From Candidatus Woesearchaeota archaeon (GTDB lineage Archaea > Nanobdellota > Nanobdellia > SCGC-AAA011-G17 > UBA489): a DNA stretch of 64,000 nt. Shown here one piece after another: positions 22,487 to 62,520 of this stretch (the first letter of the stretch is position 1; each line of letters begins with the position of its first letter). The notes beneath the pieces are model-generated. The model was not told the DNA's origin, ran no database searches, and saw only the letters and a list, made by a program, of their open reading frames with translations. The translations under genes and the position numbers were made by a program. The stretch spans positions 27,311 through 91,310 of the forward strand of contig CAYMIM010000013.1 of the NCBI GenBank assembly GCA_964390715.1. Reading direction: 5' to 3'.

Positions 22487-22525
22487 TCCTTCTTTTCTTT
22501 CTTTTTCTTTATTTTAATAAACTAT
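22487..22525 (+). terminator. T-rich tract after pilin gene 1 (archaeal oligo-T terminator candidate)
   Basis: GTCCTTCTTTTCTTTCTTTTTCTTTATTTT immediately after the stop codon. Confidence 0.3.
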
Positions 22526-22554
22526 AAAAAGAGTGTTCTTTATAAAAATTTCAC

Positions 22555-24396
22555 ATGAAAAAGAAAACAGAGATAATCCTTGTTATTCTATTATTGTTGC
22601 TTGCTACAGCATGGAGATTTATTTTTTGGCATAATGGCATTTTTGGTTCAGATGCTCTTTATCACTATAGTGTTGTAGAACAAGCACTTAAAGAAGGAAA
22701 ACTATCTAATGATAACCTATTGTCAGTGTGCTACGAAGGAATAACTACTGGACATCCTCAGGGGTATTATGTTGTGCCTTATTTTCTAGGAAAAATCGTG
22801 GGAGTTGATAATGCATTCATAATAGCTCCGATAATTCTAGGATTAATAACGCTTTTTTGTGCATACTTGCTCATTAAGTCAATATGGAATACTAAAGTTG
22901 CGCTGCTCACGCTTTTTTTTCTCGCGATTTCATTAGGACATATCTCTAAGTCATTTGCTTTTTCATGGAGGGGAGAAAATATAGTCTATCCGTTCATTCT
23001 TTTATCCTTATTCTGGATGCTAAAATCCTTTTCAAAAAAGGAAAAAAGCTCTGCCATCCTTGCTGGAATCATATCTGGTCTTACAGCATGGTTCTGGAAT
23101 GGATACCCCTTAGTGATGATTGTTTTCTTTTGCGCACTTTTTTTCTACATTAGTTGCCAGTACTTCAAAGCAGACATATTGAGGTTTAAAGAAGAGATAA
23201 ATTTAGCAACAATAAGTGTAGGAAGCCAAGCAGTCGTATTAATGTCAATTATCTACCTAACTGAGCAGTCAGGAAAAGCAGTCTTGTTTGGAAAAGAATA
23301 TTATCTTTGGGGTGTACTAATGAGTATACTTGCTCTTTGGGTTTTAAGAATAAGCAAGGTAAAAAAAACGAAAAAACCATTTATTGGTGTTGTAATCATA
23401 GGAGCAGGTATAGTTTTCCTTTTATGGAATAAAATAAGGACAATCGCACAAGGTTTTGGTTCAATAAAGCCAGAAATGCCCATTCTTGAGCTACAACAAA
23501 CATTGCCTCATCAATATTTTTTCGCATTTTACATACTATGCGTCACAAGTATTTTAGGTTTGTATTTTTTCTGTAAAGAATTCAATAATAAAAAAGCAAT
23601 TTTCGCAGGCTTATTAATGCCTAGTCTCTATTTAATAATCACTGCTAGTAGATATATTTATTTTGCGAGCATCCCCATAATCACATTGACAGCTATATTC
23701 TTAAACAATAAAAAAATTATAAGAAAGAAATTTGATATCTTTATTGTAATAACTTTTGCCTTAATGGCTATAATGATGATCTACTCGTTGTATGCGGTAC
23801 CAAGATATTTTTCAGAAAGTTTATTTATTGATACTCAAGAGCCTTATTTGTTTATAAAAGAGAATAGTGAGACGGATGCGTGCGTTGTTGAAATCTCTGG
23901 GCGTGGAGCAACTATTGAGGGATTGTCAAAACGATATTCGTATTTTGAACCAATAGGATTTTCTGAAGAAAGACATAGAAAAGTAGGATCCTTCCTTTTG
24001 GCGAATACTTCTGAGAATACGCTAGGGATCGATAATCTCTACATACTCCTTAATTATCGCGATTTTTCAAAATTAAGAGGGATGGCAAAAGCTGCTGAAA
24101 AGAATAATATTACTTTTTTCAGAATAAATGAAGGCATGAATGAAAAAGTGAATGAAACTAAAGTAAAAGAAGATTCTAATTTCATGAAATATATCTATGT
24201 AAATGAAAAAATGTTCATAAATGAAAGTGGCAAAGGATGTGTATATGTCTATTTAAGTGATTATTTTTATCTAAGTGATGAAATCTGTGAATCAAACATG
24301 TTTAAAATGATTACCAACCAAACTATGAAAAATTTCAAGAATGTTTATTTCAAAGATGGTTATGCTATCTACAAGTACGAAGTTAGTGCTTCTTAA
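22555..24396 (+). CDS. Polytopic GT-C-fold-like membrane glycosyltransferase (ArnT/PMT/oligosaccharyltransferase-like), about 400-aa TM domain plus about 200-aa soluble C-terminal domain
   Basis: More than 10 hydrophobic helices. Early loop FGSDALYHYSV is an acidic D-containing motif reminiscent of GT-C first-loop motifs. No WWDYG motif, so not a canonical AglB. Confidence 0.4.
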   Translation: MKKKTEIILVILLLLLATAWRFIFWHNGIFGSDALYHYSVVEQALKEGKLSNDNLLSVCYEGITTGHPQGYYVVPYFLGKIVGVDNAFIIAPIILGLITLFCAYLLIKSIWNTKVALLTLFFLAISLGHISKSFAFSWRGENIVYPFILLSLFWMLKSFSKKEKSSAILAGIISGLTAWFWNGYPLVMIVFFCALFFYISCQYFKADILRFKEEINLATISVGSQAVVLMSIIYLTEQSGKAVLFGKEYYLWGVLMSILALWVLRISKVKKTKKPFIGVVIIGAGIVFLLWNKIRTIAQGFGSIKPEMPILELQQTLPHQYFFAFYILCVTSILGLYFFCKEFNNKKAIFAGLLMPSLYLIITASRYIYFASIPIITLTAIFLNNKKIIRKKFDIFIVITFALMAIMMIYSLYAVPRYFSESLFIDTQEPYLFIKENSETDACVVEISGRGATIEGLSKRYSYFEPIGFSEERHRKVGSFLLANTSENTLGIDNLYILLNYRDFSKLRGMAKAAEKNNITFFRINEGMNEKVNETKVKEDSNFMKYIYVNEKMFINESGKGCVYVYLSDYFYLSDEICESNMFKMITNQTMKNFKNVYFKDGYAIYKYEVSAS

Positions 24397-25723
24397 AGAA
24401 GATAAGTTTAATGGTTAACAAAAGAATCTTGATATCAAAGAACAAAGACCAGTTCTCAATATAAAAAACATCGTGTTTAATACGTTCATCTAGAGAAGTG
24501 TTACCGTAATAGCCATTGACTTGCGCCCAGCCAGTCATGCCTCCTTTGACAGCATGTCGTTCAAGATAGTGAGGTATTTTATCTTTAAACTGGTTGATAA
24601 AGAAAGGTCGTTCTGGTCTAGGTCCTACAAGAGACATATGCCCTAAAAAGACGTTGAAAAGTTGCGGTAGTTCATCTAAATTAGTTCTTCGTAAAAATCC
24701 GCCAAGAGGAATAATTCTAGAATCATGATTGTCCGCCCACTTTGGACCAGTTTGGTGTTCAGCGTCCGGCATCATAGTACGAAATTTATAAAGAATAAAA
24801 GGCTTAGAATTATAAGAAACTCTTTCCTGTTTGTAGAAAACGAATCCTTTCGAAGTTAATTTGATAAGAAAAGCAATCACAATAAATAAAGGTAAAGAAA
24901 GTAAGATAAAAAATAAAGAAAAAAAGATATCTACTAGCCGTTTCAAAACAGGATTAAATCCTTTCAAGTTTGTTTCTTTAATATGTAAAACTGAAAGAGG
25001 GCCTATTTGCTCAGGAAGTGATCTCTTGGTGACAATATCAACAATACTGGGCACTACCTTATAAGAAATATCATGTCCTCCTTTCTCCATAATATAAAGT
25101 ATCTTGGATTGATCTTCTTTAGGCAAATGCATAATAATTTCATCGACTACATGAGTAGATAAGAGTTGACTTAATTGTTTCAGAGAAGAAGGATTGAGAA
25201 AATGAGCTAATCGATAACCATGTTCTCTGGTAATTTTTTCTTGGAAAAACTTTCTATACATAGGATCACAAATAAGCAAAGCAGTAGTTAAAAGATAGCC
25301 CCGACGGTTAAGATATGATCTCAAAGAGTTCAAAAGAAGTCTTCCAAAGCTAATAAAAAGAAAGCTGAAAATAAAACTTACAGCTATAAAGATCCTTGAA
25401 TAAGAAACTTCACGTTGAAGAAAAGTAAAAGTGACAAAAATAAAGAAAACAAAGAGTGTAGACTTGAAAATAGTATAATATTCCTCAAATATTTTTTCCT
25501 TTTTATACAGATGGAGTAAATTAAAAATAATAATATAGATAACTACAATAAAAACTAAGCTAAAAAGATAAGTAATAAGCGAAGGAATTCCTTTAGTCAC
25601 ATCTAAAATACCAGAATAGAATCTAAACCAGAAAGAAAAGAGATAAGCGGTTGCAATAAAGAAAATATCTATCAATACAGTAAGAAAGATGATAAACGAT
25701 GAATTTTTTTTAAACATGCTCAT
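24383..25723 (-). CDS. Polyprenyl-phosphate sugar phosphotransferase, WbaP/bacterial sugar transferase family (initiating phosphoglycosyltransferase)
   Basis: C-terminal domain KPFILYKFRTM...LDELPQLFNVFLGHMSLVGPRPERPFF...GMTGWAQVNG matches the family signature. N-terminal TM helices. Confidence 0.8.
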   Translation of the reverse strand: MSMFKKNSSFIIFLTVLIDIFFIATAYLFSFWFRFYSGILDVTKGIPSLITYLFSLVFIVVIYIIIFNLLHLYKKEKIFEEYYTIFKSTLFVFFIFVTFTFLQREVSYSRIFIAVSFIFSFLFISFGRLLLNSLRSYLNRRGYLLTTALLICDPMYRKFFQEKITREHGYRLAHFLNPSSLKQLSQLLSTHVVDEIIMHLPKEDQSKILYIMEKGGHDISYKVVPSIVDIVTKRSLPEQIGPLSVLHIKETNLKGFNPVLKRLVDIFFSLFFILLSLPLFIVIAFLIKLTSKGFVFYKQERVSYNSKPFILYKFRTMMPDAEHQTGPKWADNHDSRIIPLGGFLRRTNLDELPQLFNVFLGHMSLVGPRPERPFFINQFKDKIPHYLERHAVKGGMTGWAQVNGYYGNTSLDERIKHDVFYIENWSLFFDIKILLLTIKLIFFKKH

Positions 25724-26487
25724 AGTAATCTAAACCCATATTTCTTATAATAAATAAACATGCTCTTTAGGTGGTAAAAAAAGGTTTTGCTAAAGAGATT
25801 ATAGCTTGCTCGTTGATAAACATGGGTAGCTATAGCGGAAGGATAGTATACTATTCTCCAGCCAGCTTTTTTCGCTCTTTGGCATAAGTCTATATCTTCA
25901 AAATAAAGGAAAAAATGATGATCTAAAAGCCCTATCTGATCAAACGCTGTGCGACGAATAAAAAGAAATGCGCCAATAGACCAATCGACGTCTTGAGTTT
26001 TATCATGATCAATATCCAACATAAGATAATTTCTTACTATTCTAGATCTAGGGAAAAAAGGTTGAATAAAATGTGCTAAAAAAACTGGATATCGTCTACA
26101 AGAAGGCTGTAAAAGATTATTAGGATAGAGGAGTTTGCAAGAAAGAACACCAACAGAGGTCTGCTTCTGCATATAAGTAAACACTTTTTGCAGGGTATCT
26201 TTTTGTACATATACATCAGGGTTTAAAAGTAAAATATAATCTCCTCGAGATTGTCGTATAGCTATATTGCATGCAGAAGAAAAACCAACATTTTTTATAG
26301 TTCTAATCAGAGTAACAGGATAACGTTGAAGAATAGCTAAAGTAGTATCTTTGGAGTTATTATCCACAACAATAATTTCTAGATCTTTGAAAGATTGTTG
26401 TTGAAGAGCCTCAAGACAAGAACCAATATACTTTTCAGAGTTATAAGTAACAATAACAACTGAAATAGTTAGTTTAGGTTTTGGCAT
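25720..26487 (-). CDS. Glycosyltransferase family 2
   Basis: ISVVIVTYNSEKYIGSCLEAL...IIVVDNNSKD...DxD-type region. Confidence 0.7.
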   Translation of the reverse strand: MPKPKLTISVVIVTYNSEKYIGSCLEALQQQSFKDLEIIVVDNNSKDTTLAILQRYPVTLIRTIKNVGFSSACNIAIRQSRGDYILLLNPDVYVQKDTLQKVFTYMQKQTSVGVLSCKLLYPNNLLQPSCRRYPVFLAHFIQPFFPRSRIVRNYLMLDIDHDKTQDVDWSIGAFLFIRRTAFDQIGLLDHHFFLYFEDIDLCQRAKKAGWRIVYYPSAIATHVYQRASYNLFSKTFFYHLKSMFIYYKKYGFRLL

Positions 26488-26490
26488 AGT

Positions 26491-27294
26491 TTAGGAAAGC
26501 TTGTTAGCGGCAAATTTCTTCATCTGTGCTCTAAATCGTTTTGTTATAAAGGGTCGTAACAATAATCTATAACTTTTATACAAAGGATAAAGCAAAATAT
26601 AGGACGGTCTAGTAAAGAGATGTGGATGATTCTTTTTAATTCTAGAATAGAGATAAGCATGCTTCTGAAGAGCGTTATGAATCATAGTTTTGCCATGTTT
26701 TCGATAGAAAAATAAAGGTTCTGGAATGACAAAGGATTGCCAATTGCGCTCTAAAAGAGAGATGTAAAAGTCCCAATCCTCATAGCCATAAATCATGTTC
26801 TGATTATACCCTATAGTTTGGTTATATGCTTTTCTTCTAATAACAGAAGACACAACTGCTGAATTGTAGAAACGCATGCTACTCAAAGTTGCAGTTCCAG
26901 TGACTCCAATCCCCTGTACATCACCAAAATACTGAATATAGGGGTAAACAAAACCAATAGTAGCAGAAGATTCCAAAATGTTGACAGCTTTTTCAATATA
27001 CGTAGAATCTATGCAATCATCAGCATCTAAAGGAAGGAAATATTTTCCACGAGAGCGTCGAATGCCATTGTTTCGTGCTGAAGCTAGTCCTTGATTATCT
27101 TGATGAATCACAGTAATGTTCTTGTGGCGAATACTGCCAAGCACTTTTTTCGTATTTGTGTCAATTGATCCATCATTGACAACAATAATTTCAATAGGCT
27201 TGTAAGTAGAAGATAAAACACTCTGAAGAGTTTCCTGAATATAGTTACCATAATTATAACAAGGAACAATAACACTCACTAAAGGTAAAGTCAT
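26491..27294 (-). CDS. Glycosyltransferase family 2
   Basis: VSVIVPCYNYGNYIQETLQSVLSST...IIVVNDGSID...LDADD. Confidence 0.7.
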   Translation of the reverse strand: MTLPLVSVIVPCYNYGNYIQETLQSVLSSTYKPIEIIVVNDGSIDTNTKKVLGSIRHKNITVIHQDNQGLASARNNGIRRSRGKYFLPLDADDCIDSTYIEKAVNILESSATIGFVYPYIQYFGDVQGIGVTGTATLSSMRFYNSAVVSSVIRRKAYNQTIGYNQNMIYGYEDWDFYISLLERNWQSFVIPEPLFFYRKHGKTMIHNALQKHAYLYSRIKKNHPHLFTRPSYILLYPLYKSYRLLLRPFITKRFRAQMKKFAANKLS

Positions 27295-28328
27295 AATTTC
27301 ATCCTCCGGAAAAGTGCATTAAATCGTTTTTCATAAGTATGATCTCGTAAAGTTCTGGTATAAGCTGCTTTCGCTATAGCTATTCTTTCATCATCATGGT
27401 TAAGATAATAGTTTATTTTTTCTAAAAGATCTGGGATAGTAGTAAAAACAACAATTTCTTTATTAGGAATATAATAATCTTCTAAATTATCAGCAGAATT
27501 AGTTAATAAAAAACTACGAGTTCCTGGAATCTCAAAATTACGACCTTTTATCTGGTCCTGTGACAGAAAGAAAGTTCTGAAGGTATTAAGTATTTCTCTA
27601 GGAGGTTTAATATAAGGCTTATTTCTTTTAAAAAAAAGACGAAGAAAGTTTTTATTGGTTGATACATTAGTTAAATTAAGATTGATTTTGCTTTGAGAAA
27701 AACAATCTAGCATAGCTTCTTGTGTCAATCTACCTTGTGGCCAGCCAGTTCCCCAGCAAGTAATGTCCACGCCTTTATTTTTTAGTGTTTGAATAATCTG
27801 TTTTCGATCTCCATGAGATTGTCCTACAAAAGAAACAGGGTATTTTTTCTTTGCTGAAGAAGGTTTATAAAAAAAATGATTGCATGCCCACTGTGTAGCA
27901 AGTACTTGGTTGTAACCAATGCGATGATAAAGAGGTAAAGCTTGTGAGTAAGTTGTTGATACCCAGTGAAAATCTGGTGCATAATATTGAGAATAAGTAT
28001 AAAAACGCCAATGATCATCCGCAAACCAATTAAAAGTAATTGCACCGCTATGTGCGGTGATATATTGAATAGTAGCGTGTGTAATTTCATCTGTGAATAA
28101 AAAAAAGAAGCAAAGATCAGGTTGTATTTCAGAAACTTTCTTGAGTAATAAAGCATTCATAGCTTCCTTGCCAATTTTATGCATTATTTCATCAAACGGA
28201 AAATAGATAATTTCATGTTTTTTATTATTCATATGAACTAAAGAATGATAAAAATTGTAATGTTCAAAACTGTATCCCCTGCCCATCTTTCCATAATCGT
28301 ATTTCATCGCTATGTAAAGAATTTTCAT
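27291..28328 (-). CDS. Glycosyltransferase, GT-B (GT1/GT4, CgeB-like) C-terminal domain
   Basis: C-terminal NFEIPGTRSFLLTNSADNLEDYY...EIVVF...LLEKINYYLNHDDERIAIAKAAYTRTLRDHTYEKR resembles GT4/CgeB donor-binding domains. Confidence 0.5.
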   Translation of the reverse strand: MKILYIAMKYDYGKMGRGYSFEHYNFYHSLVHMNNKKHEIIYFPFDEIMHKIGKEAMNALLLKKVSEIQPDLCFFFLFTDEITHATIQYITAHSGAITFNWFADDHWRFYTYSQYYAPDFHWVSTTYSQALPLYHRIGYNQVLATQWACNHFFYKPSSAKKKYPVSFVGQSHGDRKQIIQTLKNKGVDITCWGTGWPQGRLTQEAMLDCFSQSKINLNLTNVSTNKNFLRLFFKRNKPYIKPPREILNTFRTFFLSQDQIKGRNFEIPGTRSFLLTNSADNLEDYYIPNKEIVVFTTIPDLLEKINYYLNHDDERIAIAKAAYTRTLRDHTYEKRFNALFRRMKL

Positions 28329-28586
28329 AGGATAATATGTTTAGGCGTCCTTTTTATTTTTATGGGCTGGGCTATTTATAAGGAACGCTAGCCTTTTATA
28401 GACTTATTATAAGTTTATGGGATGCTATCCAGAGTAAAGAATAAAATAATTTCTCAGATAGACAGAGTAAAGCAAAGGCAAACTAACAAAAAAAGATTGG
28501 CCTTCTTTAAAAAAATTAAAAAATATAATAAATAAGAAAAGAAAAGATCTAGCTTTCACAGTTAAAGATGATATTATCCGAATACA

Positions 28587-29285
28587 TCAAATATGGGCTC
28601 GCCAGATAAAGAAAGTATCATGAAGATTTAGTTGAACATTCTTAAAACCAGATTGCAATAAAAGTTCCTTAAAGTAAGTTGGTTGATATTCTCGTATATG
28701 AAAGGGAGAATCGCTGAATTTTTCAAGAGAAGTATTATTGGTTGGTGTACAACCAATAAAAAATCCTTCTTTTTTCAAATGTTTTTTTATGTAATGCAAT
28801 AAAGTAACAAAATTCTGTTCACTAATATGTTCAACAAATTCAGTGCTAGAAATAACATCAAAAAGACCAAAATTATCTGATAAAATGGTAATATTCTTTT
28901 GGTGATAGGTTATTTTTTTGTTGTGAGAAAATCGAAATTCAGCTGGAGATATCTTATCTACAGAAATAACACTCTGGACAGTATTTTGGTTGGCAATCTG
29001 ATGAGTAAGATAGCCGAATCCACAGCCAATATCAAGAACTCTTCCATGAACAAGAGAAAGAATAGGTTGTGAATAAGCTTCAAAATACTCTTTTTCTGCA
29101 TCTGTAGTAGTCGGATCATATCGTTCAGTTGGTGGAATAAAAAAAGCATGGATTCGAATATAAAGAGGAGAAATAACAGGTAGACGAGTCATCTTTTTAG
29201 TAAAAGAAAATAAAAAAGGAAGTTTAACCTTCACATAATTTTTTGTAGAGGAGAAAAGGTTCATAAGTTTTGTTCCTTTAGCCAC
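28587..29285 (-). CDS. Class I SAM-dependent methyltransferase
   Basis: VLDIGCGFGYLT (motif I GxGxG). Confidence 0.65.
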   Translation of the reverse strand: MAKGTKLMNLFSSTKNYVKVKLPFLFSFTKKMTRLPVISPLYIRIHAFFIPPTERYDPTTTDAEKEYFEAYSQPILSLVHGRVLDIGCGFGYLTHQIANQNTVQSVISVDKISPAEFRFSHNKKITYHQKNITILSDNFGLFDVISSTEFVEHISEQNFVTLLHYIKKHLKKEGFFIGCTPTNNTSLEKFSDSPFHIREYQPTYFKELLLQSGFKNVQLNLHDTFFIWRAHI

Positions 29286-29929
29286 ACGTCTAGGATTTCT
29301 TTTTCCTTACCTATTAAAGAAAGGGATAAAATTTCTTTGGCAACAGCTTTTTCATTGATAGGTTTAAAGGATTTCTTAGCTGTCACAAGAATATTATCTA
29401 AAAAGTCTACAGCACTAGGAAGAACTTTATTTGCATGTTTAGAAATTCTGCTTGGAATATATTTGCTAGTATAATTGGTAAATAATTTAACTTGAATATC
29501 TTCAAACCCGAGTTTATCAAGAATATATCTAAATTTTTTTTCTCCCCAATAATCTAAATGAAATGCCCAAGGAGACTCTTGTGAACCAAAAATATGTCGT
29601 GCTATTTTAAATTGTGTTTTGAGGTCTGCTGTAGCAAATTTCTTGACAGTAGTTTCAAAATCTGGAGTTTCAAGCACTAACTTTCCACCAGGTTTTAACC
29701 ATCTACGCCAGCGAAATAAGTGTTTTAAGATCTCTTGTCGTGAAAAATGTTCAAGAAGGTGATGTGTTCGCACTTCATCAACGCTATTGTCTGCATATGC
29801 AAGCTCTCGAATGTCTTTATACACATCGGCTTTTGCCTTCATAACTGTTTGACCTTCTGTAGGGAGATCAATATTGACATAGCCAGCTAAATAACTCTCT
29901 CCACAACCTAAATGTAATTTTACTTCCAT
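29261..29929 (-). CDS. Class I SAM-dependent methyltransferase
   Basis: HLGCGESYLAGYVNIDL (motif I-like), LKPGGKLVLETPD (post-motif II). Confidence 0.55.
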   Translation of the reverse strand: MEVKLHLGCGESYLAGYVNIDLPTEGQTVMKAKADVYKDIRELAYADNSVDEVRTHHLLEHFSRQEILKHLFRWRRWLKPGGKLVLETPDFETTVKKFATADLKTQFKIARHIFGSQESPWAFHLDYWGEKKFRYILDKLGFEDIQVKLFTNYTSKYIPSRISKHANKVLPSAVDFLDNILVTAKKSFKPINEKAVAKEILSLSLIGKEKEILDVWLKEQNL

Positions 29930-30609
29930 GTTTTTATTTCACCTTTTTCCAAATACAAAATTCTATCGCTGAATTTTTTAACAGTAGCAATATCATGACT
30001 TACAAAAAGAATAGTCTTCTGTTGTTTTTTGAAATTTCTAAAGACTTCATAACATTTTTTCTGGAACACTTCATCTCCAACTGCTAAAACTTCATCCACT
30101 AAGAGAATGTCAGCATCAACTTGACTAGCTATCGAAAAGCCAAGACGAGCAACCATGCCTGAACTGAGATTTTTAAGTTTGGTATCAACAAATTTTCTAA
30201 GGTCAGAAAAGGAAATAATAGTGTCATATCGTCTCTCTATCTCTTGATGAGATAAGCCTAGCAAAGAACCATAGAGAAATATATTCTCTTTGACTGTTAA
30301 TTCTCCTTGAAATCCAACTCCTAATTCTAAAAAAGGACTTAAAGTGCCATGAACATGCACATAGCCTTGAGTAGGTTGTAATACTTTAGCAATAATTTTG
30401 AGAAAAGTGCTCTTGCCTGCTCCATTTGGACCAACAATACCAATAAATTCTCCCTTCTTGATGGATAAACTAACATCTTTCAAAGCATAAAAACGTTCAT
30501 AAGAATGGCTGAGATTAAAGAGACCTAGAATATAAGATTTAACCCCATACTTTTTATCGTGAGGAATGTTAAAAATTTTCGTAACATGCTCTAAAGAAAT
30601 AATATTCAT
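29920..30609 (-). CDS. ABC transporter ATP-binding protein, polysaccharide/O-antigen-type exporter (Wzt/KpsT/TagH-like)
   Basis: Walker A GIVGPNGAGKST, signature LSSGM, Walker B ILLVDE. Start overlaps the upstream methyltransferase. Confidence 0.8.
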   Translation of the reverse strand: MNIISLEHVTKIFNIPHDKKYGVKSYILGLFNLSHSYERFYALKDVSLSIKKGEFIGIVGPNGAGKSTFLKIIAKVLQPTQGYVHVHGTLSPFLELGVGFQGELTVKENIFLYGSLLGLSHQEIERRYDTIISFSDLRKFVDTKLKNLSSGMVARLGFSIASQVDADILLVDEVLAVGDEVFQKKCYEVFRNFKKQQKTILFVSHDIATVKKFSDRILYLEKGEIKTWK

Positions 30610-31364
30610 TAGACTAACTCCGCAAAATAGACTGCCATTTTTTTATAGATAAAGAGTCCTATGAAAAAAACTAGTAAAGAATAACCAAGTGATAACACAT
30701 AGAAAGAAAAATTAAAGTGGTTGGAAAGAAGAAGGTCTCTCAGTCCTTCAATAATCAATGCAAACGGATTAAGATACATAAAAGAAAGGAATCGCAGAGG
30801 AATAATATTGACAGGATAGACAATAGGAGTCAGCCAGAAAAATGATTGAAGAAGTATCCTCCAAATATGCTGTACATCTGGAAAGCGAATTGTTAACGCG
30901 CCAACAATATAGGAAATACCCAAAGTAAGTAAAAATAAATTAAAAAGGAAAAAGATCATCAAGAAAGAATGGAAAGAAAAAGTAAAGCCAGTAAAGAAAT
31001 AAAAGATAAAGAATACCAAAAAATTAAGAACCAATCCTAAAAAAGTTGTTATGTTAGATGCAAAAACTATAACTGTTCTGGGAAAATAGATTTTTTTCAT
31101 AATGCTAGATTTAACGGAGAGTGAAGTAATAGCATTTAAGGTAGCTTCATTAAAAAATCCCCAGAGAATAATGCCTAAAAATAAGAATAATGGATAATGT
31201 TCTACCTTGAACTTGACAAAGTAGCTAAAAACAACATATAACACCGTAAAAGTCAATAAAGGATTTAACAAAGACCATAAGTATCCTAGGGCAGATCCCT
31301 GATATTTAAGTTTAAAGTCGGTCCATGCGAAAATCTTTACAAGATTTAAGTAATATCTATCCAT
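30609..31364 (-). CDS. ABC-2 type transporter permease (Wzm/KpsM-like)
   Basis: 6-TM 251-aa protein immediately upstream of, and overlapping, the ATPase gene. Confidence 0.7.
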   Translation of the reverse strand: MDRYYLNLVKIFAWTDFKLKYQGSALGYLWSLLNPLLTFTVLYVVFSYFVKFKVEHYPLFLFLGIILWGFFNEATLNAITSLSVKSSIMKKIYFPRTVIVFASNITTFLGLVLNFLVFFIFYFFTGFTFSFHSFLMIFFLFNLFLLTLGISYIVGALTIRFPDVQHIWRILLQSFFWLTPIVYPVNIIPLRFLSFMYLNPFALIIEGLRDLLLSNHFNFSFYVLSLGYSLLVFFIGLFIYKKMAVYFAELV

Positions 31365-31463
31365 AAAATGGTTTTAAATCTGAAGGTTATATAACTTTTG
31401 TCATTCTCGAGTGGAAGAATATCTTTAAAAAGACAGAATTACTCCTAATCCGAGGTGAAAAGA

Positions 31464-55539: not shown

Positions 55540-58500
55540 ATGCCACCATCTGACGCAGCAAATGAAATCATGGAGCTTGCTAAAGTACCAGCCCACATTA
55601 GAAATATTTGTACTTCTGCGCACATTCATCACGGAAAATGCATTGATGGTAAAAGTAGACTTATTCTAGCAAATGGTGAGATTAAAACTGCCGAGCAAAT
55701 CTATCAACTAGCGGAACAAAAAGGGCAGAAGTTTGAAGAGAAAGAAGAACATACTATCTACGACATTTCAAAAGAAAACATCACTATTTTTTCCTTAAAT
55801 CAAGCTACAGGTCAATTAGAAAAGAAAAATGTAAGCTTGGCATGGAAATTGAAAGGTGGTCAGGTTATCAAAATAAAACTAAGAAATGGTTTTGATATCA
55901 CAAGCACTCCAGAACACAAGTATATAGTGTTTAAAAATATGCAGTTTGTAGAGAAAATTGCTGGAGAATTGCGATTAGGTGACAATATAGTCTGCGCAAG
56001 AAAAACGAATGTTGATGCAAATATAGATCTAAAAAAGGAAATGCTTGAGCTATTAAGAAATAAAAACTTCTATGTTTGTCTAAAAGAAGACTTTGTTGCA
56101 CAATTAAAACAAAAGATATTTGCATATGGCACAGAAAAATTAGTAAAAGAAATAAACTCGCCAATCAAGCCTAAATCATTCTACCATGGTATTTGGCAAA
56201 AAAGAATATTGTTAAACGATCTACTTAATGCATGTAAAATATTCGATATAACTGAAATTTACGATAAAATAGAAACCATCGTCTATAGAACAGGAAAACA
56301 ACGAGGCCATAACTCATTACCTATAAAATTGCCGCAGAATTTTGCAAATTTCTTCTATTTAGCTGGATTATTTACTGGTGATGGCTCTTCTAAGCGGTTT
56401 ATTGTAGGCAAAGAAGAACTAAGAAAAGAATTTATCAGTATATGTCAAGAGATAGGCTGTAATGCTACAGAAAAGAACGACAAAGGAAAAACACCTGCTC
56501 TTGAAACCAATAAAACTCTGCTTCATATGCTTAATACAATCTTTGACTATCCATTAAAACAAAAGAGTCATAATGTTAAAATTTCAACTTTTGTCTGGAA
56601 AAGTCCAAAAGAGCTTATTGGAAAATTCCTTAAAGGTTACTTTGACACTGATGGCACGGTAGAGTTATCTAGAGGTGCTATTTCAATTTATTCAGCTAGC
56701 AAACAAATGATGAAAGATCTGCCGTTACTTTTGTTACGCTTTGGGATTGTTCCTATTGTCAATAACGATAACATATACATTAGTGGATTTTCAGTAGAGC
56801 AATATAATAAACAAATTGGATTCAATGTCAAACACAAAGAACAACGAGCAAAAGCATTAGCAACAAATGCTATAGGTAGCTATGTAACTGACTGGATTAA
56901 TCTCACAACAGAAACAAGAGTAAGTAAACACAATACACAAAAATTAGTACAATTGGGTCTCAAAGAACAAGTGCAAAATAAATTCTTCAACGATGATTTA
57001 GTATACATTCAAGTCACAGGCATTGAAGAAGGGTATGAAGAAACAGTTTATGATTTCACAGTTCCAGACAATCATACCTTTATAGCCGAAGGCATTGTCA
57101 TGCATAATACGGCGCTCACAGACAACCTCCTTGCGGCTTCCGGTCACATAAGCTCTAAGGCGGCAGGCGACTTGGACAAAGGTATGGCGACTTGGCAGCA
57201 CGCTGATGAGCAAGAGCGTTTGATGACTGTCGATGCGGCTAATGTATCCATGATCCACACGTTTGAGAATACTAAATATCTTATCAACTTGATCGACACG
57301 CCAGGACACGTTGACTTCGGAGGTAACGTCACTCGTGCCATGAGAGCCATTGACGGAACTATTGTGTTAATTTGCGCGGTAGAAGGGATCATGCCGCAGA
57401 CAGAAACTGTCGTTCGTCAAGCCATTCGTGAACGCGTCAAGCCAGTCCTCTTCATCAACAAAGTCGATCGCTTGATCAACGAATTAAAATTCACGCCTGA
57501 GCAAATGCAGGAGCGTTTCTTGAAATTAATCACGGAGTTCAACACCTTAATCGAGAACACCGCTGAAGATGAGTACAAACAAAAATGGAAAGTAGACATT
57601 CTTAATGGCAGTGTCGCTTTTGGTTCTGCTCGTGAGAACTGGGCTTTATCTATTCCTTACATGAAGAATAAAAATGTTTCTTTCAAGGATATTGTCAATC
57701 TCTACAAAGAGGACGTGACTGAGGAGAATCGCCAAAAATGGATCTGGGAAAAGGCTCCCGTCTTTGAAGTCATTCTCGACATGGTCATCAAGCACTTGCC
57801 CAACCCTTTGGAAGCGCAAAAATATCGTATTCCGCACATTTGGCATGGAGATTTAGAGACGCAATTCGGTAAAGATTTATTAGTGGGAAATCCTAATGGA
57901 AAAATAGCGTTCGTCATCACGCGTATCACTATCGATCCAAGATTTGGTCGTGAATTATGCGCGGGTCGTTTATTTTCTGGCACAGTCAGAGCTGGGCAAA
58001 CAGTCTGGTTGAACAACGCGAAATCAACGCAAAGAATCGCTCAAGTCTTTATGTATAAAGGTATCAAGCCTGAATCTTTAGACTCTGTTTCCGCGGGAAA
58101 TGTCCTGGCCTTAGGCGGTATTTCTGGTATGGCTGGTGAAACTATTACTGAGGGACCAGAGCAGCCATTCGAGGAATTAAAGCACATTTTCGAGCCGGTC
58201 ATCACCAAATCTATCGAACCACTTAAGCCACAAGACTTGCCAAAGCTCGTGGAAGTTTTGAAGAAAGTATTGAAAGAAGATCCCTCTATCAAGATTGATA
58301 TCAACCAGGAAACGGGTGAAAATTTGATCCATGGTATGGGTGAATTGCACCTAGAGATTATTGAGAATCGTATCAAGACAGAAAAAGGATTGGACATTAA
58401 AACGTCTCCTCCTATTGTAGTCTATCGTGAATCAATGCAAAAGCCTGGTCAGGAAATGGAAGGAAAATCTCCCAATAAGCACAACAAATTCTATATTGTC

Positions 58501-59217
58501 TGCGAGCCTTTGGAAGAGAATGTGCATGCTGCTATCAAAAAGGGAGACATTCCTGAAGGTCGCGTCTCCAAAAAAGATACTCGTCTGTATGAAGTCCTGG
58601 AAAAATTAGGCTGGTCCGCGAAAGAAGCGAAGAAAGTGCGTGATGTTTACAATGGTAATTTGTTAATTGATGACACTCGTGGTATTGTCTACATTGGTGA
58701 AGTGCAGGAATTAATTAATGATGGATATGAGCAGGTCATGAAGCAAGGTCCAATCGCTCGTGAACCAGTTGTTAAGTTAAAGGTCATTGTCAAAGATTGT
58801 AAACTGCATGAAGACGCTATTCACCGTGGTCCTGCGCAAGTGGTTCCAGCGATCCGTGAAGCTATTCGTGGTTCTATGAACTCAGGTAACGCGATTATTT
58901 ATGAGCCATTGCAAGTATTACAGATTGACGCTCCTGCGGATTACATGGGAGAGATTAGTAAATTAGTCCAGAACAAGCGTGGTCAACTCTTAAGCGTCAA
59001 GCAAGAAGGCACCTCTATGAGCATCAGAGCGAAATTGCCAGTCGCTGAGTCTTTTGGTCTCGCTTCTGATCTTCGTTCCGCGACAGCGGGTCGTGGATCT
59101 TACTTCTTAGTGGATCAAATGTACGAAAAACTACCATCAGATTTACAGCCAAGAGTCGCTCAGAGAATTAGAGAAAGAAAAGGCTTGAAAGCTGAAGAGC
59201 CTGTAGCTACAGAATAA
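55540..59217 (+). CDS. fusA: Elongation factor 2 (aEF-2) interrupted by a 490-aa intein within the P-loop
   Basis: Exteins ...IRNICTSAHIHHGK / TALTDNLLAASGHISSKAAGDLDKGMATWQHADEQERLMTVDAANVSM...LIDTPGHVDFGG are contiguous EF-2 G-domain sequence. 1225 aa against about 730 aa typical. Confidence 0.85.
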   Translation: MPPSDAANEIMELAKVPAHIRNICTSAHIHHGKCIDGKSRLILANGEIKTAEQIYQLAEQKGQKFEEKEEHTIYDISKENITIFSLNQATGQLEKKNVSLAWKLKGGQVIKIKLRNGFDITSTPEHKYIVFKNMQFVEKIAGELRLGDNIVCARKTNVDANIDLKKEMLELLRNKNFYVCLKEDFVAQLKQKIFAYGTEKLVKEINSPIKPKSFYHGIWQKRILLNDLLNACKIFDITEIYDKIETIVYRTGKQRGHNSLPIKLPQNFANFFYLAGLFTGDGSSKRFIVGKEELRKEFISICQEIGCNATEKNDKGKTPALETNKTLLHMLNTIFDYPLKQKSHNVKISTFVWKSPKELIGKFLKGYFDTDGTVELSRGAISIYSASKQMMKDLPLLLLRFGIVPIVNNDNIYISGFSVEQYNKQIGFNVKHKEQRAKALATNAIGSYVTDWINLTTETRVSKHNTQKLVQLGLKEQVQNKFFNDDLVYIQVTGIEEGYEETVYDFTVPDNHTFIAEGIVMHNTALTDNLLAASGHISSKAAGDLDKGMATWQHADEQERLMTVDAANVSMIHTFENTKYLINLIDTPGHVDFGGNVTRAMRAIDGTIVLICAVEGIMPQTETVVRQAIRERVKPVLFINKVDRLINELKFTPEQMQERFLKLITEFNTLIENTAEDEYKQKWKVDILNGSVAFGSARENWALSIPYMKNKNVSFKDIVNLYKEDVTEENRQKWIWEKAPVFEVILDMVIKHLPNPLEAQKYRIPHIWHGDLETQFGKDLLVGNPNGKIAFVITRITIDPRFGRELCAGRLFSGTVRAGQTVWLNNAKSTQRIAQVFMYKGIKPESLDSVSAGNVLALGGISGMAGETITEGPEQPFEELKHIFEPVITKSIEPLKPQDLPKLVEVLKKVLKEDPSIKIDINQETGENLIHGMGELHLEIIENRIKTEKGLDIKTSPPIVVYRESMQKPGQEMEGKSPNKHNKFYIVCEPLEENVHAAIKKGDIPEGRVSKKDTRLYEVLEKLGWSAKEAKKVRDVYNGNLLIDDTRGIVYIGEVQELINDGYEQVMKQGPIAREPVVKLKVIVKDCKLHEDAIHRGPAQVVPAIREAIRGSMNSGNAIIYEPLQVLQIDAPADYMGEISKLVQNKRGQLLSVKQEGTSMSIRAKLPVAESFGLASDLRSATAGRGSYFLVDQMYEKLPSDLQPRVAQRIRERKGLKAEEPVATE
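55639..57108 (+). mobile_element. Intein with LAGLIDADG homing endonuclease in aEF-2 (Cys1 ... His-Asn, +1 Thr), inserted between GK and T of the Walker A motif
   Basis: Begins CIDGKSRLILANGEIK and ends GIVMHN, followed by TALTDNLL. Motifs FYLAGLFTGDGS and LKGYFDTDGTV. Confidence 0.8.
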
Positions 59218-59251
59218 GAGCCTAATCTGTAATTATTTATATGTTAAGAAG

Positions 59252-59848
59252 TTAGAGTTGTCTTTTCCATTTAGCGAAGTCTATTAAAACTGCGCCACCT
59301 TTTTCTGGAGACCAAATACAATTTGCTAATTTTAAGTCAAGACCAGAGAATCCTCTTTGTGTTGCTTTACGAATTTCTTCATCTCTTGAAGCAATAGCCT
59401 CTTGGTACTCTCTTGATTCAAAATTTAATTTATCTAGAGTAACTCCTGAAATATATTCCATTATAAAAAGTTCACAGATACATCTCCCAAATCCTTGGAT
59501 CCTTTGAATCCCTTTTCCATCATCAACTCCTTGTAATGATAATTTTTTAATTGCTATAGGTCTAGGTACTCGTATACCTTCTCTAAAAAGTTGTGTAGCT
59601 ATCCCATGGTCATTTTTTATTTTTTGATCATGTTTATGACGTTCTCTTAAGGTATAAACTTCTGGATTTTGAGCATATAATGGAAATTTTGCAACTAAAG
59701 TTTCAGAAATTCTATAGGCTAGACCATCAAATCCTTGTCCTAAAAGTCGAGATGAGTCAGAGGTACATACTTGTTCAATAAAATGTGCCATAGCAGATTC
59801 CTCTAACAACTCTAAATGAGAGAAATGAAGAGGAGTGGGGGTGTGCAT
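59252..59848 (-). CDS. Small protein-kinase-like/Kdo-kinase-like protein (about 198 aa), AT-rich, inserted on the opposite strand inside the EF2/EF1alpha operon
   Basis: MEYISGVTLDKL (hinge-like) ... VLIDFAKW (DFG-like) pattern. Weak assignment. Confidence 0.35.
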   Translation of the reverse strand: MHTPTPLHFSHLELLEESAMAHFIEQVCTSDSSRLLGQGFDGLAYRISETLVAKFPLYAQNPEVYTLRERHKHDQKIKNDHGIATQLFREGIRVPRPIAIKKLSLQGVDDGKGIQRIQGFGRCICELFIMEYISGVTLDKLNFESREYQEAIASRDEEIRKATQRGFSGLDLKLANCIWSPEKGGAVLIDFAKWKRQL

Positions 59849-59892
59849 ACATCACTATAAGGCGACTAGATTTATAATTATTTCTCATAAAA

Positions 59893-60237
59893 ATGATAAA
59901 GAAGCGTGAAAACCACAAAGTTTATAAGTATGTATCTATTAAATACAACTTGATAACTATGGAACAAGTACTCATAGCACCAAAAATAGCGCACAGTCCA
60001 ACTTTAGAAACTGTCCAGATGGTAGAGGAAACAATCAAAGAAGCCAAAGAAGTACTCAGTATCGCGGAGCTGAAAAGAAGACTCCCAAGAAAAGTAAATC
60101 ACAATACTCTAAAAATCATTCTTACCTATTTACAAAAAAGTGGCAAAATAGAATTTACACCAGACGGCGTAGTTTGGATTTTCCTACCCAAAGAAGACAT
60201 AGCGGCAATCCTCAGCAAAGGAAGAACATGGGCTTAA
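59893..60237 (+). CDS. Hypothetical small protein, possibly winged-helix-like; possible start at the internal Met (MEQVL)
   Basis: ORF track. ...SIAELKRRLPRKVNHNTLKIILTYLQKSGKIEFTPDGVVW. The stop overlaps the start of the next small ORF. Confidence 0.35.
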   Translation: MIKKRENHKVYKYVSIKYNLITMEQVLIAPKIAHSPTLETVQMVEETIKEAKEVLSIAELKRRLPRKVNHNTLKIILTYLQKSGKIEFTPDGVVWIFLPKEDIAAILSKGRTWA

Positions 60238-60603
60238 AACAGAAAGAGAAGATTGTCAAGGTTATTGGTGCTGCTGAAGCTGCTCTTACAAAGCTAGAAG
60301 AAAATATTAATAGTATAGAAGCGCAAGGAAAAACTCCCGCCAAAACAGATTAAGCAACTTCTCAAAAGTATTGGACATGCGTTAGACCTTCTCAAAGGAA
60401 ACCCCTTCACAGGCAATCCAGTTTCTCATCATCTCTGGCCTAAAGAATTTCAACAATTACCAAACCTATTCAGGATAGAGCTTTCTCAATTTTGGAGATT
60501 GTTATATTATGTAACTGGAGATGAGGTTAAAGTGATTAGTGTAGTTTTCGAAATTTGTGATCATCCGCAGTATGATAAAATTTTTGGCTACAAGAAGAAA
60601 TGA
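60228..60603 (+). pseudogene. RelE/ParE-family toxin-like gene, apparently disrupted by a frameshift: a 41-codon ORF (60228..60353) followed in the +1 frame by the toxin core with no start codon
   Basis: +1 frame (60319..60603): ...LKGNPFTGNPVSHHLWPKEFQQLPNLFRIELSQFWRLLYYVTGDEVKVISVVFEICDHPQYDKIFGYKKK*. It matches the RelE/ParE pattern (NPF.G.P ... LWR.RVGDYRIIY ... V.VL.I.H) but has no ATG/GTG/TTG in frame. Confidence 0.45.
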
Positions 60604-60704
60604 GACGTCCATATTATAGAAAAATAGCTCAATTCCTACCGTAACCTTTATAAATCGTTGATTGTGCATTTAAGCACTAATACCATAAAGGAGATACTCT
60701 AAAA

Positions 60705-61991
60705 ATGGCAAAGCAAAAACCACACATTAACGTTATTTTCGTAGGTCACGTTGACCACGGAAAGTCCACTACAGTTGGACGTCTCATGTACGATTCTGGT
60801 AACATTGATGAGCAAGCTATGAGAAAGCTCAAGGAAAAAGCGCAGCAATTAGGTAAGGCTGGTTTCGAATTCGCGTTCATTATGGATAATCTAAAAGAAG
60901 AGCAAGAACGTGGTGTAACCATTGACTTGTCCTATCAAAAGTTCTTGACAGACAAATTTGAAGTGACTATCATCGACGCTCCTGGACACAAGGACTTCGT
61001 CAAAAACATGATTACAGGCGCTTCCCAGGCGGATTGCGCGTTCTTAGTATGCGCTGCTCCTGATGGTATTATGGCCCAGACCAAAGAACACATCTGGTTG
61101 CTCAAGACCTTAGGTGTACAGCAAATTTCAGTCGTAGTTAACAAGATGGATGTAGTCAAATATGATCAGGCTAAATTCGACGCTGTTGTTACTGACTTAA
61201 AGAAATTAGCGCAGATGGTCGGATTCAAAGCTGATCAAATCCAATTTATTCCAACAAGCTCCTATAATGGAGACAATGTCGTCAAGAGATCAACCAACAT
61301 GACTTGGTACACAGGTCCAACTATCAGAGAGCAATTAGACTTGTTCAAAGAGCCTGAAAAGCCAGTTACCTTGCCATTGCGTATGCCTATTCAGGATGTC
61401 TATAACATCCCAGGTATCGGTGTAGTTCCAGTCGGTAGAATTGAAACGGGAAAAATGAAGACAAATGATAAGATCATTGTCGTTCCTGCTAGAGACGGTA
61501 AAGGTATCAAAGGTGAAGTAAAATCCATCGAGATGCACCATGAAGTCGTTCCTGAAGGTATTGCGGGTGACAACATTGGTTTCAACGTTCGTGGTATCAC
61601 CAAGAAAGATATTGCTCGCGGTGACGTTTTAGGTCATGAATCTAATCCGCCTACTATCTGTACAGAATTCACTGCGCAGATCGTGGTTTTGAATCACCCA
61701 ACCGTTATCACGAAAGGGTACACGCCAGTCTTCCACATTCACACTGCGCAAGTAGCGTGTCAGATCGTGGAAATCGTGAAGAAATTGGACCCAGCGACTG
61801 GTCAAGTATTGCAGGAGCACCCAGACTTCATCAAGAACGGTGATGCGGCCATTATCAAAGTCAGACCAACAAAACCTTTAGTCATCGAACGTCAGAAAGA
61901 TATCCCACACATGGCTCGTTTCGCGGTTCGTGACGCTGGTTCAACAGTCGCCGCGGGTATGTGCATCGACTTAGTGGCTAAAGTATTATAA
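60705..61991 (+). CDS. tuf: Elongation factor 1-alpha (aEF-1A)
   Basis: [29 protein letters not shown] GTPase motifs. 428 aa. Confidence 0.9.
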
Positions 61992-61994
61992 GAA

Positions 61995-62035
61995 GGTTTT
62001 TCCTTCTTCTTTTCTCATTTTTTTCTTTTCTTGTT
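61995..62035 (+). terminator. Pyrimidine/oligo-T tract after tuf (archaeal intrinsic terminator candidate)
   Basis: AGGTTTTTCCTTCTTCTTTTCTCATTTTTTTCTTTTCTTGTTT. Confidence 0.35.
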
Positions 62036-62077
62036 TGAGCGCCTTATCAGAAAACTACAAGTGAAAGGTGAAAACAG

Positions 62078-62476
62078 ATGGTCAACGCAAAATACAGATA
62101 TGAAATAATTATAAGATTCAATGACGAGATGGCGTTTCGTGATGCGCATGATGGAAGCGTAACAGGCAGAAGAGATGATGATTTTAGATATGCGAATGGT
62201 GTAGCACGACTGACCATAAATAATGATCCCTATAAAGGAAACATGAGCAGTTATGAGCCGCATGGAAATATAGGAAGAGCATTTTCAGAGAGAAGATTAG
62301 ATATTGCATTAGTGCAAGGATTAAGAAAAAGATTAGTAAATATCGCGCATGTGGAAGTGAAAGAGCTAAGAAGCATGGATAGAGGGCATTTGCGAATTAT
62401 AAAGAGAGCCGATCTAGAAGGTGCATTAAGTGAAATCCCTATGCAGGCGGATATGGCTGAGGAACCTGAAGAATAA
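62078..62476 (+). CDS. Hypothetical protein (132 aa) inserted between tuf and rps10; codon usage differs from neighbours
   Basis: GGTGA Shine-Dalgarno-like sequence 8 nt upstream of the ATG. Heavy AGA/AGG/ATA usage, unlike flanking translation genes. Confidence 0.45.
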   Translation: MVNAKYRYEIIIRFNDEMAFRDAHDGSVTGRRDDDFRYANGVARLTINNDPYKGNMSSYEPHGNIGRAFSERRLDIALVQGLRKRLVNIAHVEVKELRSMDRGHLRIIKRADLEGALSEIPMQADMAEEPEE

Positions 62477-62520
62477 AAGTGCAGAAACCTTTATAAACCG
62501 CCTTCTTTCTTTTCTTTTTT

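Follow-up and report, generated by a model that had tools for sequence, protein, structure and literature searches.

A probable toxin–antitoxin cassette with a frameshifted toxin gene, and a minimal kinase-fold gene, between fusA and tuf of a Woesearchaeota genome

In a 64,000-nt stretch of a Woesearchaeota (DPANN/Nanoarchaeota) genome – hereafter the window – the genes for EF-2 (fusA) and EF-1alpha (tuf) are separated by a spacer of 1,487 bp (59218–60704, between the fusA stop at 59217 and the tuf start at 60705). This spacer is an ordinary accessory locus: it contains a probable type II cassette of the RelE/ParE kind, its toxin gene frameshifted, and a minimal kinase-fold gene on the opposite strand. 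The initial annotation, made from the DNA letters alone, had described an AT-rich interval of about 1.5 kb with three elements (a kinase-like gene, a small winged-helix-like gene and a disrupted toxin gene), and all three are present in a segment of 34.7% GC; it had read them as a decaying mobile or addiction-module insertion in an essential operon. We favor, with good but not complete confidence, a different explanation: two independent accessory units occupy a permissive gap between separately transcribed fusA and tuf genes, and the toxin gene of one of them is frameshifted.

According to this explanation the first unit (59917–60603) would be a chromosomal type II toxin–antitoxin cassette of a family specific to Woesearchaeota and Nanoarchaeota. 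Its 92-aa winged-helix-like protein would bind a palindrome in the cassette promoter, repress the cassette and neutralize the toxin, while the 124-aa YoeB-like toxin would be a ribosome-dependent mRNA endonuclease. The cassette would already have been resident at this site in the common ancestor with the lineage of a related locus (L083); a T inserted after codon 41 would then have abolished the full-length toxin, leaving an orphan antitoxin or regulator. The second unit would be a separately acquired, minimal RIO-related kinase-fold gene of an uncharacterized DPANN family, without recurrent link to the cassette. Neither unit would be expected to harm expression of the translation factors, because tuf appears to have its own promoter, and it is probably for this reason that unrelated genes accumulate at the fusA–tuf junction in Woesearchaeota.

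The toxin gene belongs to a conserved two-gene cassette

A search with the C-terminal part of the window toxin returned 125 protein clusters, nearly all 124 aa long and 64–89% identical, whose N-termini agree with the peptide encoded by the window in frame 0. A few of these clusters bear the name 'RelE/ParE family toxin' or 'Txe/YoeB family toxin', and some carry a precomputed PF05016 match. When 28 family members were compared with Pfam, 24 matched ParE_toxin, 23 ParE_like and 23 YoeB_toxin, the best E-values in the family being 1.7e-6 for ParE_toxin (PF05016) and 2.9e-5 for YoeB_toxin (PF06769). The AlphaFold2 (AF2) model (predicted local distance difference test score (pLDDT) of 77) has a beta-alpha-alpha-beta-beta-beta-alpha topology – a strand at residues 9–12, helices at 15–32 and 39–57, strands at 81–84, 89–96 and 99–107, and a helix at 113–119 – and thus the compact RelE/ParE fold, a three-stranded antiparallel sheet on two N-terminal helices. 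Comparison of the model with the PDB using Foldseek gave, as the top 49 matches, the toxins ParE2, YoeB, RelK, ParE, YafQ, RelE and HigB, plus Cami1.

The catalytic set of E. coli YoeB consists of E46, R65, H83 and Y84. Alignment of the toxin family with E. coli YoeB using hhalign gave a probability of 86% and joined the FW...RLxY core of the two. Five residues are invariant in the family (R90, E108, H112, Y115 and Y121): R90 lies opposite the Arg of the YoeB HRLVY segment, and the alignment ends before the C-terminal His/Tyr. These results point to a RelE/ParE-superfamily protein that appears closest to YoeB and ParE; its scores lie under the curated cut-offs for the specific models.

The gene upstream of the toxin gene is open back to 59893 (59893–60237), but the ATG at that position precedes the conserved promoter, and the true start is placed at the ATG at 59959 because members of the family (208 clusters, 65–93% identical) are typically 92 aa long. 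Pfam matches of this partner protein are all sub-threshold; those to winged-helix families are SelB-wing_2, RPA_C, TBPIP, Penicillinase_R and TFIIE_beta. A weak PADLOC match (E=0.006, below any threshold) links residues 28–72 to the N-terminal winged-helix region of AbiEi, and JGI lists one homologue as 'predicted transcriptional regulator of viral defense system'.

The two genes are tightly linked. In 79 metagenome loci collected with the toxin profile, 69 toxin copies could be assessed, and all 60 that are intact have the partner gene directly upstream; the genes overlap by 10 nt in the window, in L083–L089 and in every other locus inspected. They are small, co-directional, translationally coupled and, in every context sampled, together, which is the arrangement of a type II pair. 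In some loci (L128, L157 and L093/L094) two cassettes, or a cassette and an extra partner gene, stand side by side, and some of these copies are degenerate. In a single lineage (L084–L086) the cassette lies directly downstream of a tyrosine-recombinase gene (Phage_integrase) that could encode either XerA or a mobile-element integrase.

Upstream of the partner gene the window contains a transcription factor B recognition element (BRE) and TATA box (AAAGTTTATAAG, 59917–59928), an imperfect palindrome (TGTATC-TATTAA-ATACA, 59931–59947) and a conserved TTGATAACT immediately 5' of the ATG. Across 23 loci of unrelated context these form a gap-free block at fixed distance from the ATG (consensus cgaAAagTTTATAtATaTGTATCtATTaGaTACAtaTTGATAACtATG), and no conservation was found upstream of the block in the same 23 loci. 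The block reads as a BRE/TATA box followed by an imperfect palindrome and a short leader. The cassette is thus likely self-contained, with a promoter of its own and a probable operator.

A single-nucleotide frameshift in the toxin gene

Frame 0 of the toxin gene extends from the ATG at 60228 through 41 codons to a TAA at 60351–60353, and codons 42–124 continue in the next frame (60352–60603; 83 residues, ending with TGA at 60601–60603). Alignment with the DNA of L083 attributes this to one extra T at 60350/60351, a +1 frameshift (ACAGATTAAGCAA in the window vs. GCGGA-TAAACAA in L083). The addiction-type module with a disrupted RelE/ParE-like toxin that had been proposed for this interval is supported. 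Logan contig L002, an independent assembly of the same sample, shows the identical frameshift.

Over the whole toxin gene the window and L083 differ by 32 synonymous and 13 non-synonymous codons, and over codons 42–124 by 24 synonymous and six non-synonymous; the remainder of the window toxin is 89% identical, in the residues compared, to the intact L083 copy. Because the codons past the frameshift still show purifying selection, the lesion appears to be recent, or possibly an error of assembly. A gene so well preserved, with a single lesion, does not fit the description 'decaying'. Among the metagenome loci nine of the 69 assessable copies (13%) are split or truncated, four of them split: toxin loss therefore recurs across the family. 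Programmed +1 frameshifting at GAT-TAA-G was considered and ruled out, given 60 intact metagenome homologues that are unshifted and four copies that are split; in addition, tRNA-Asp would be unable to re-pair in the +1 frame.

Evolutionary history of the cassette

In L083 and L092 the gene order is fusA, a 59-aa opposite-strand open reading frame (ORF), the winged-helix-like gene, an intact toxin gene and tuf. EF-1alpha of these loci is 96.5% identical to that of the window, and that of a third relative, L003, is 95.6% identical. L003 is without the whole block – which bears out that it is accessory – and has an unrelated ORF of 136–145 aa in a spacer of 514 bp instead. At the nucleotide level the window and L083 are 88.2% identical in the winged-helix-like gene, 86.7% in the toxin gene, 87.9% in tuf and 82.3% in the EF-2 C-extein. 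Because the cassette is found at the same site in L083/L092, with divergence like that of tuf, it predates the split of these lineages. In EF-2 (85.9% nucleotide identity) and S10, L083 and L003 resemble each other more than either resembles the window; tuf hardly resolves the three (86.8–88.1%), and the tree rests mainly on EF-2. Given this tree, the presence of the cassette in both the window and L083 is most simply explained if it was ancestral to all three and was subsequently lost or replaced in L003. None of the 80 closest tuf loci in species-representative genomes has the pair, nor does L003; these 80 loci are labeled Woesearchaeota, Nanoarchaeia, Pacearchaeota or similar, with the exception of some labeled Methanosarcinales, Aenigmatarchaeota or plain 'archaeon'.

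The spacer has none of the hallmarks of an integrated mobile element (an integrase or transposase, a tRNA or att target, flanking repeats). No integrase or recombinase is encoded among its ORFs, no tRNA occurs between 52 and 64 kb and no Rfam element was found; searches for flanking repeats and target-site duplications gave only short AT-rich matches at chance level, and no relatives turned up when viral contigs were scanned with the toxin profile. One of the chance-level matches, a 14-nt pair (59225/59870, 86% identical), has as its right copy the TATA region that L083 also contains. The suggestion of a mobile insertion is thus not upheld, the cassette occupying the same site, with tuf-like divergence, in L083/L092.

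The opposite-strand kinase-fold gene

The opposite-strand gene, which the initial annotation had rightly called kinase-like, encodes a protein of 198 aa (here the mini-kinase). It contains a G-loop (GQGFDG, at residue 37), a VAK motif with Lys54, a hinge (MEYISG, at 130), a catalytic D171xxxxN176 and a DFG-equivalent D190-F-A, and because the protein ends eight residues after the latter it has a minimal kinase fold. Matches of the single sequence are weak (APH, E=0.0024; Kdo kinase, E=0.03) and below the curated cut-offs (18.1 bits vs. 23.2 for APH; 13.4 vs. 142 for Kdo kinase); no Pfam RIO1, Pkinase or Kdo match reaches threshold, and the protein is thus not placed in the RIO, APH or Kdo-kinase families.

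A word-indexed homologue search with the mini-kinase found only the query itself, while an exhaustive HMMER search gave 98 homologues of 82–693 aa (nearly all 130–220 aa) at 25–50% identity. In their alignment, which is too divergent for scanning collections, all members keep K54, G135 and D190 and nearly all keep E80 and N176; the G-loop and the VAK, DxxxxN176 and D190-F motifs are conserved as well, and the hinge is kept as MEYIxG. An AF2 model built on this alignment (pLDDT 87.4) has a protein-kinase-like fold. Foldseek gave 530 PDB matches at E<=0.001, including WbdD kinase, Rio2 and CK2; among the 50 matches listed all are protein kinases, together with one aminoglycoside phosphotransferase. 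With a bilobal fold, an ATP-binding Lys, a catalytic Asp/Asn loop and a metal-binding Asp, the mini-kinase has the features of the protein-kinase-like (PKL) superfamily. When the family profile was compared with PDB sequences, RIO2 was the first match (1e-8), followed by RIO1, OspG, NleH1/2 and SteC; the match to RIO2 shows relatedness only, as judged from sequence, and not family membership.

The mini-kinase gene is absent from L083, where 233 bp stand in its place, and from L003, which has a different ORF. Homologues were found in eight differing contexts in Woesearchaeota and Nanoarchaeota genomes, none of the eight with the cassette. The gene is probably an independent, more recent acquisition. 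Three further ideas about it were examined and set aside. That the mini-kinase is a third component of the cassette, or a HipA-like toxin, was rejected since in the contexts sampled elsewhere it never stands next to the cassette; a link to translation genes was rejected since only two of the eight contexts are translation clusters; and the 59-aa opposite-strand ORF of L083 was rejected as a kinase remnant, as it shows no similarity to the kinase.

Some of the contexts deserve mention. In L172 (4001–4537) a homologue (P0243) is tightly spaced, on the same strand, within a ribosomal-protein operon between S5 and S3, and in L173 a homologue is translationally coupled to a Pkinase gene of 526 aa. 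A full-length Pkinase gene on the opposite strand directly after fusA in L018, another Woesearchaeota genome (6479–7312, minus strand; 277 aa, E=8e-33), is unrelated to the mini-kinase family.

The fusA–tuf junction in Woesearchaeota

The initial annotation took fusA and tuf to be normally adjacent, which is not the rule in this lineage. Of 66 assessable loci, 19 have fusA less than 250 bp from tuf, 29 have 0.3–7.8 kb of other genes between the two, and in the other 18 at least the 4 kb upstream of tuf are free of fusA. Where a locus contains both genes (48 Woesearchaeota loci), they are 80 to 7,843 bp apart. Genes in the larger gaps are rarely shared: 68 of 73 ORFs have no homologue in any other gap, and the functions of those sampled are assorted (metallophosphoesterase, SIS protein, Ser/Thr kinase, EEP nuclease and PCMT methyltransferase, besides ORFans). 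Between S7 and fusA, which are adjacent in the window, L083 (81–2521) has two opposite-strand glycoside-hydrolase genes (NAGidase and GH1).

Upstream of tuf the window contains a predicted promoter block (CTACCGTAACCTTTATAAATCGT, 60636–60658) with a TATA box at 60647–60654, and a Shine–Dalgarno sequence (GGAG) at 60690–60693. The window, L083 and L003 share, letter for letter, a 19-nt BRE/TATA core (CCGTAACCTTTATAAATCG) about 50 nt upstream of the tuf start, and each has GGAG ahead of tuf; the sequences upstream of this core are unrelated among the three. In most of 73 Woesearchaeota loci tuf has a BRE/TATA-like motif and GGAGG in front of it (46 by a strict pattern), and the BRE/TATA-like motif is seen even where the fusA gap is only 80–130 bp. 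From these motifs we infer that tuf is an independent transcription unit with its own promoter. A conserved polycistronic S12–S7–fusA–tuf–S10 operon, with fusA and tuf adjacent and tuf dependent on upstream transcription, is not what is seen here, given adjacency in only 19 of the 66 loci and a promoter motif at tuf; the claim that an essential conserved operon is interrupted is not supported. The fusA–tuf junction would instead be a permissive site of gene turnover in Woesearchaeota.

Layout and composition of the locus

Between 54.0 and 62.8 kb the window encodes on a single strand a NusA-like KH protein, S12, S7, EF-2, EF-1alpha, a 132-aa ORFan and S10; the features of the spacer and its boundaries are collected in Table 1. 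The spacer is AT-richer than its flanks (43.6% GC in the fusA C-extein and 44.1% in tuf, against 39.1% for the whole window), as the initial annotation had noted, but this does not extend to each of its genes. Compared with the window's 61 long ORFs (39.1 +/- 4.3% GC), the winged-helix-like and toxin genes are unremarkable, with 36–39% GC and a GC content at third codon positions (GC3) of 0.33–0.54. The mini-kinase gene, with a lower GC3 (0.161) than any other of these ORFs, is the sole compositional outlier in the spacer. The AT-richness of the spacer partly reflects the flanking genes, which are GC-rich and highly expressed. Conservation of the arrangement in relatives, with host-typical composition, had been named in advance as evidence against a mobile insertion: both were found for the winged-helix–toxin pair, but not for the mini-kinase gene.

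Table 1. Features of the fusA–tuf spacer and its boundaries (positions in the window).
Feature	Position	Strand	Basis
fusA (EF-2), including a LAGLIDADG intein of 490 aa; left boundary of the spacer	55540–59217	+	ORF
Mini-kinase (PKL) gene, 198 aa	59252–59848	-	Family alignment, AF2 and Foldseek
Predicted cassette promoter and putative operator	59917–59958	+	Block conserved in 23 loci
92-aa winged-helix-like gene, putative antitoxin/autorepressor, intact	59959–60237	+	Family of 208 clusters
RelE/ParE-superfamily (YoeB-like) toxin gene, frameshifted	60228–60603	+	124-aa family; DNA alignment with L083
Predicted tuf promoter and leader	60636–60704	+	19-nt core identical in the window, L083 and L003
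tuf (EF-1alpha); right boundary of the spacer	60705–61991	+	ORF; Pfam annotation of an identical protein

The EF-2 protein matches GTP_EFTU, EFG_III, EFG_IV, EFG_C, Intein_splicing and LAGLIDADG_3 in Pfam. Its intein (nt 55639–57108, aa 34–523, 490 aa) has about 32% GC, and inteins, either mini or full-length, are found at the identical insertion point in relatives; EF-2 is 931 aa long in L083, short in L009 and L078, and long in L057 and L081. On the other side of tuf, the tuf–S10 spacer (61992–62520) holds the 132-aa ORFan (ORF 62078–62476), which has no Pfam or NCBIfam match and no detectable similarity to the ORFs found at this position in L003 (147 aa) and L083 (130, 103 and 131 aa); in most Woesearchaeota tuf and S10 are less than 125 bp apart. 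Elsewhere in the window a block of ORFs at about 22500–31400 has 31–35% GC, well under the window mean, and may be a separate low-GC island.

Alternative explanations

Several observations weigh against the proposal of two accessory units with a frameshifted toxin–antitoxin cassette. Family member P0002 scores below the Pfam cut-offs (20.6 bits vs. 23, and 18.3 vs. 27), the TIGR02116 score is likewise below its cut-off (13.9 vs. 51.8), and profile searches with the toxin and partner families against PDB sequences gave chance matches only. The small gene described in the initial annotation is present and does have winged-helix matches, but these are sub-threshold, and the most frequent sub-threshold matches (Mis14 and LARA_dom, in 16 of 26 members) are not winged-helix: the assignment of the fold is accordingly provisional, and toxicity, neutralization and DNA binding are all putative. 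The cassette proteins are also unusually conserved (65–93%) for a toxin–antitoxin pair, and a housekeeping pair or recent lateral spread would also fit. One could thus imagine that the two genes are a conserved Woesearchaeota regulator–effector pair, such as a stress-responsive translation regulator, rather than an addiction module. The conservation extends over more than 100 clusters and is comparable to that of EF-1alpha among these genomes (62–79%), and the promoter architecture is strictly conserved; yet contexts vary, some contigs carry duplicated copies, 13% of copies (the window's included) are broken, the pair is missing from all 80 species-representative tuf loci and from L003, and type II toxins have the same fold and gene architecture. 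We regard such a pair as improbable. The frameshift, finally, is derived from assemblies of one read set and may be an assembly error or a minority allele. If so, the extra T would be a consensus error or a minority variant, an intact 124-aa toxin would be made, and the cassette would be fully functional, as a single lesion in a gene with so few non-synonymous changes and the 60 intact copies among 69 would lead one to suspect. The T recurs, however, in the independently assembled L002 (albeit from the same sample), the site GAT-T-AAG is not a long homopolymer, and broken copies make up 13% of the family elsewhere; an intact cassette is unlikely, if the least unlikely of these alternatives.

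There is also the view from which the analysis departed, that the whole 1.5 kb is one recent, decaying mobile element splitting an essential operon. The block is AT-richer than its flanks and absent from L003, the cassette adjoins a tyrosine-recombinase gene in L084–L086, and the mini-kinase gene is both outlying in GC3 and missing from L083. Against this stand the occurrence of the cassette in L083 at this very position, with a divergence like that of the flanks, its host-typical GC, and the lack in the spacer of an integrase, tRNA or terminal repeats and, in the contigs scanned, of viral relatives. Moreover, the mini-kinase and the cassette differ in distribution and so are not one element, tuf has its own promoter motif, and adjacency of fusA and tuf is not conserved in the lineage. 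For the cassette this view is largely refuted, and as an account of the whole spacer it is improbable. Two accessory units in a permissive gap remain the explanation that we prefer: the spacer would hold not a selfish element breaking a translation operon, but a long-resident cassette between independently promoted genes.

Two families emerge as by-products. One is a well-defined, Woesearchaeota-specific toxin–antitoxin family, in which the winged-helix-like partner is unannotated and both promoter and palindrome are conserved; it is a possible handle on gene regulation in uncultured DPANN archaea. The other, whose members have about 170 aa and a minimal kinase fold, is uncharacterized. Neither alters the present understanding of toxin–antitoxin systems or kinases. 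More speculatively – and we think this doubtful – the winged-helix-like protein and the N-terminally extended YoeB-like toxin may form a distinct, DPANN-restricted type of toxin–antitoxin system, and the kinases of about 170 aa a new minimal RIO-related class that needs a partner, like OspG/NleH. If the former were true, the unusual conservation of sequence and promoter architecture would stem from active spread by lateral transfer, or from a physiological role conserved among these symbionts.

Comparison with known systems

The reference type II systems used here are YefM–YoeB/Axe–Txe and ParD–ParE (PDB 2A6Q/2A6R, 5CZF and 3OEI, and the archaeal aRelE–aRelB, 1WMI). Like YefM–YoeB and ParD–ParE, the cassette has the order antitoxin then toxin, overlapping genes and a toxin with a beta-alpha-alpha-beta-beta-beta fold, whose best structural matches are ParE2, YoeB and RelK and whose profile matches are ParE_toxin, ParE_like and YoeB_toxin; as in autoregulated toxin–antitoxin operons, a palindrome lies within the promoter. 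Unlike YoeB and ParE, the toxin of the window family is 124 aa long, with a conserved N-terminal extension of about 35–40 residues, and scores below the YoeB/Txe cut-offs. Its partner is not of the Phd/YefM, ribbon–helix–helix or Xre helix–turn–helix type but a 92-aa winged-helix-like protein belonging to no Pfam family. The family, again unlike YefM–YoeB and ParD–ParE, is confined, as sampled, to Woesearchaeota and Nanoarchaeota metagenomes, and the window toxin is frameshifted. Compared to AbiEi, which has about 265 aa, the partner has 92 aa, and it pairs with a RelE/ParE toxin rather than with the AbiEii nucleotidyltransferase.

The mini-kinase shares with RIO kinases, OspG, NleH and SteC a kinase-like fold and a conserved ATP-site Lys, helix-C Glu, DxxxxN motif and metal-binding Asp. 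As in OspG and NleH, the protein stops soon after the DFG-equivalent, without an activation segment and lower C-lobe. In contrast to RIO kinases it has no RIO N-terminal domain, and belongs to an uncharacterized archaeal (DPANN) family of about 170 aa.

The archaeal 'streptomycin' operon has the order S12–S7–EF-2–EF-1alpha–S10, as in Methanococcus vannielii. The window keeps this order on one strand (preceded by the NusA-like KH protein), but the cluster of Woesearchaeota is loose: in some genomes the S7–fusA and tuf–S10 junctions, too, contain inserts.

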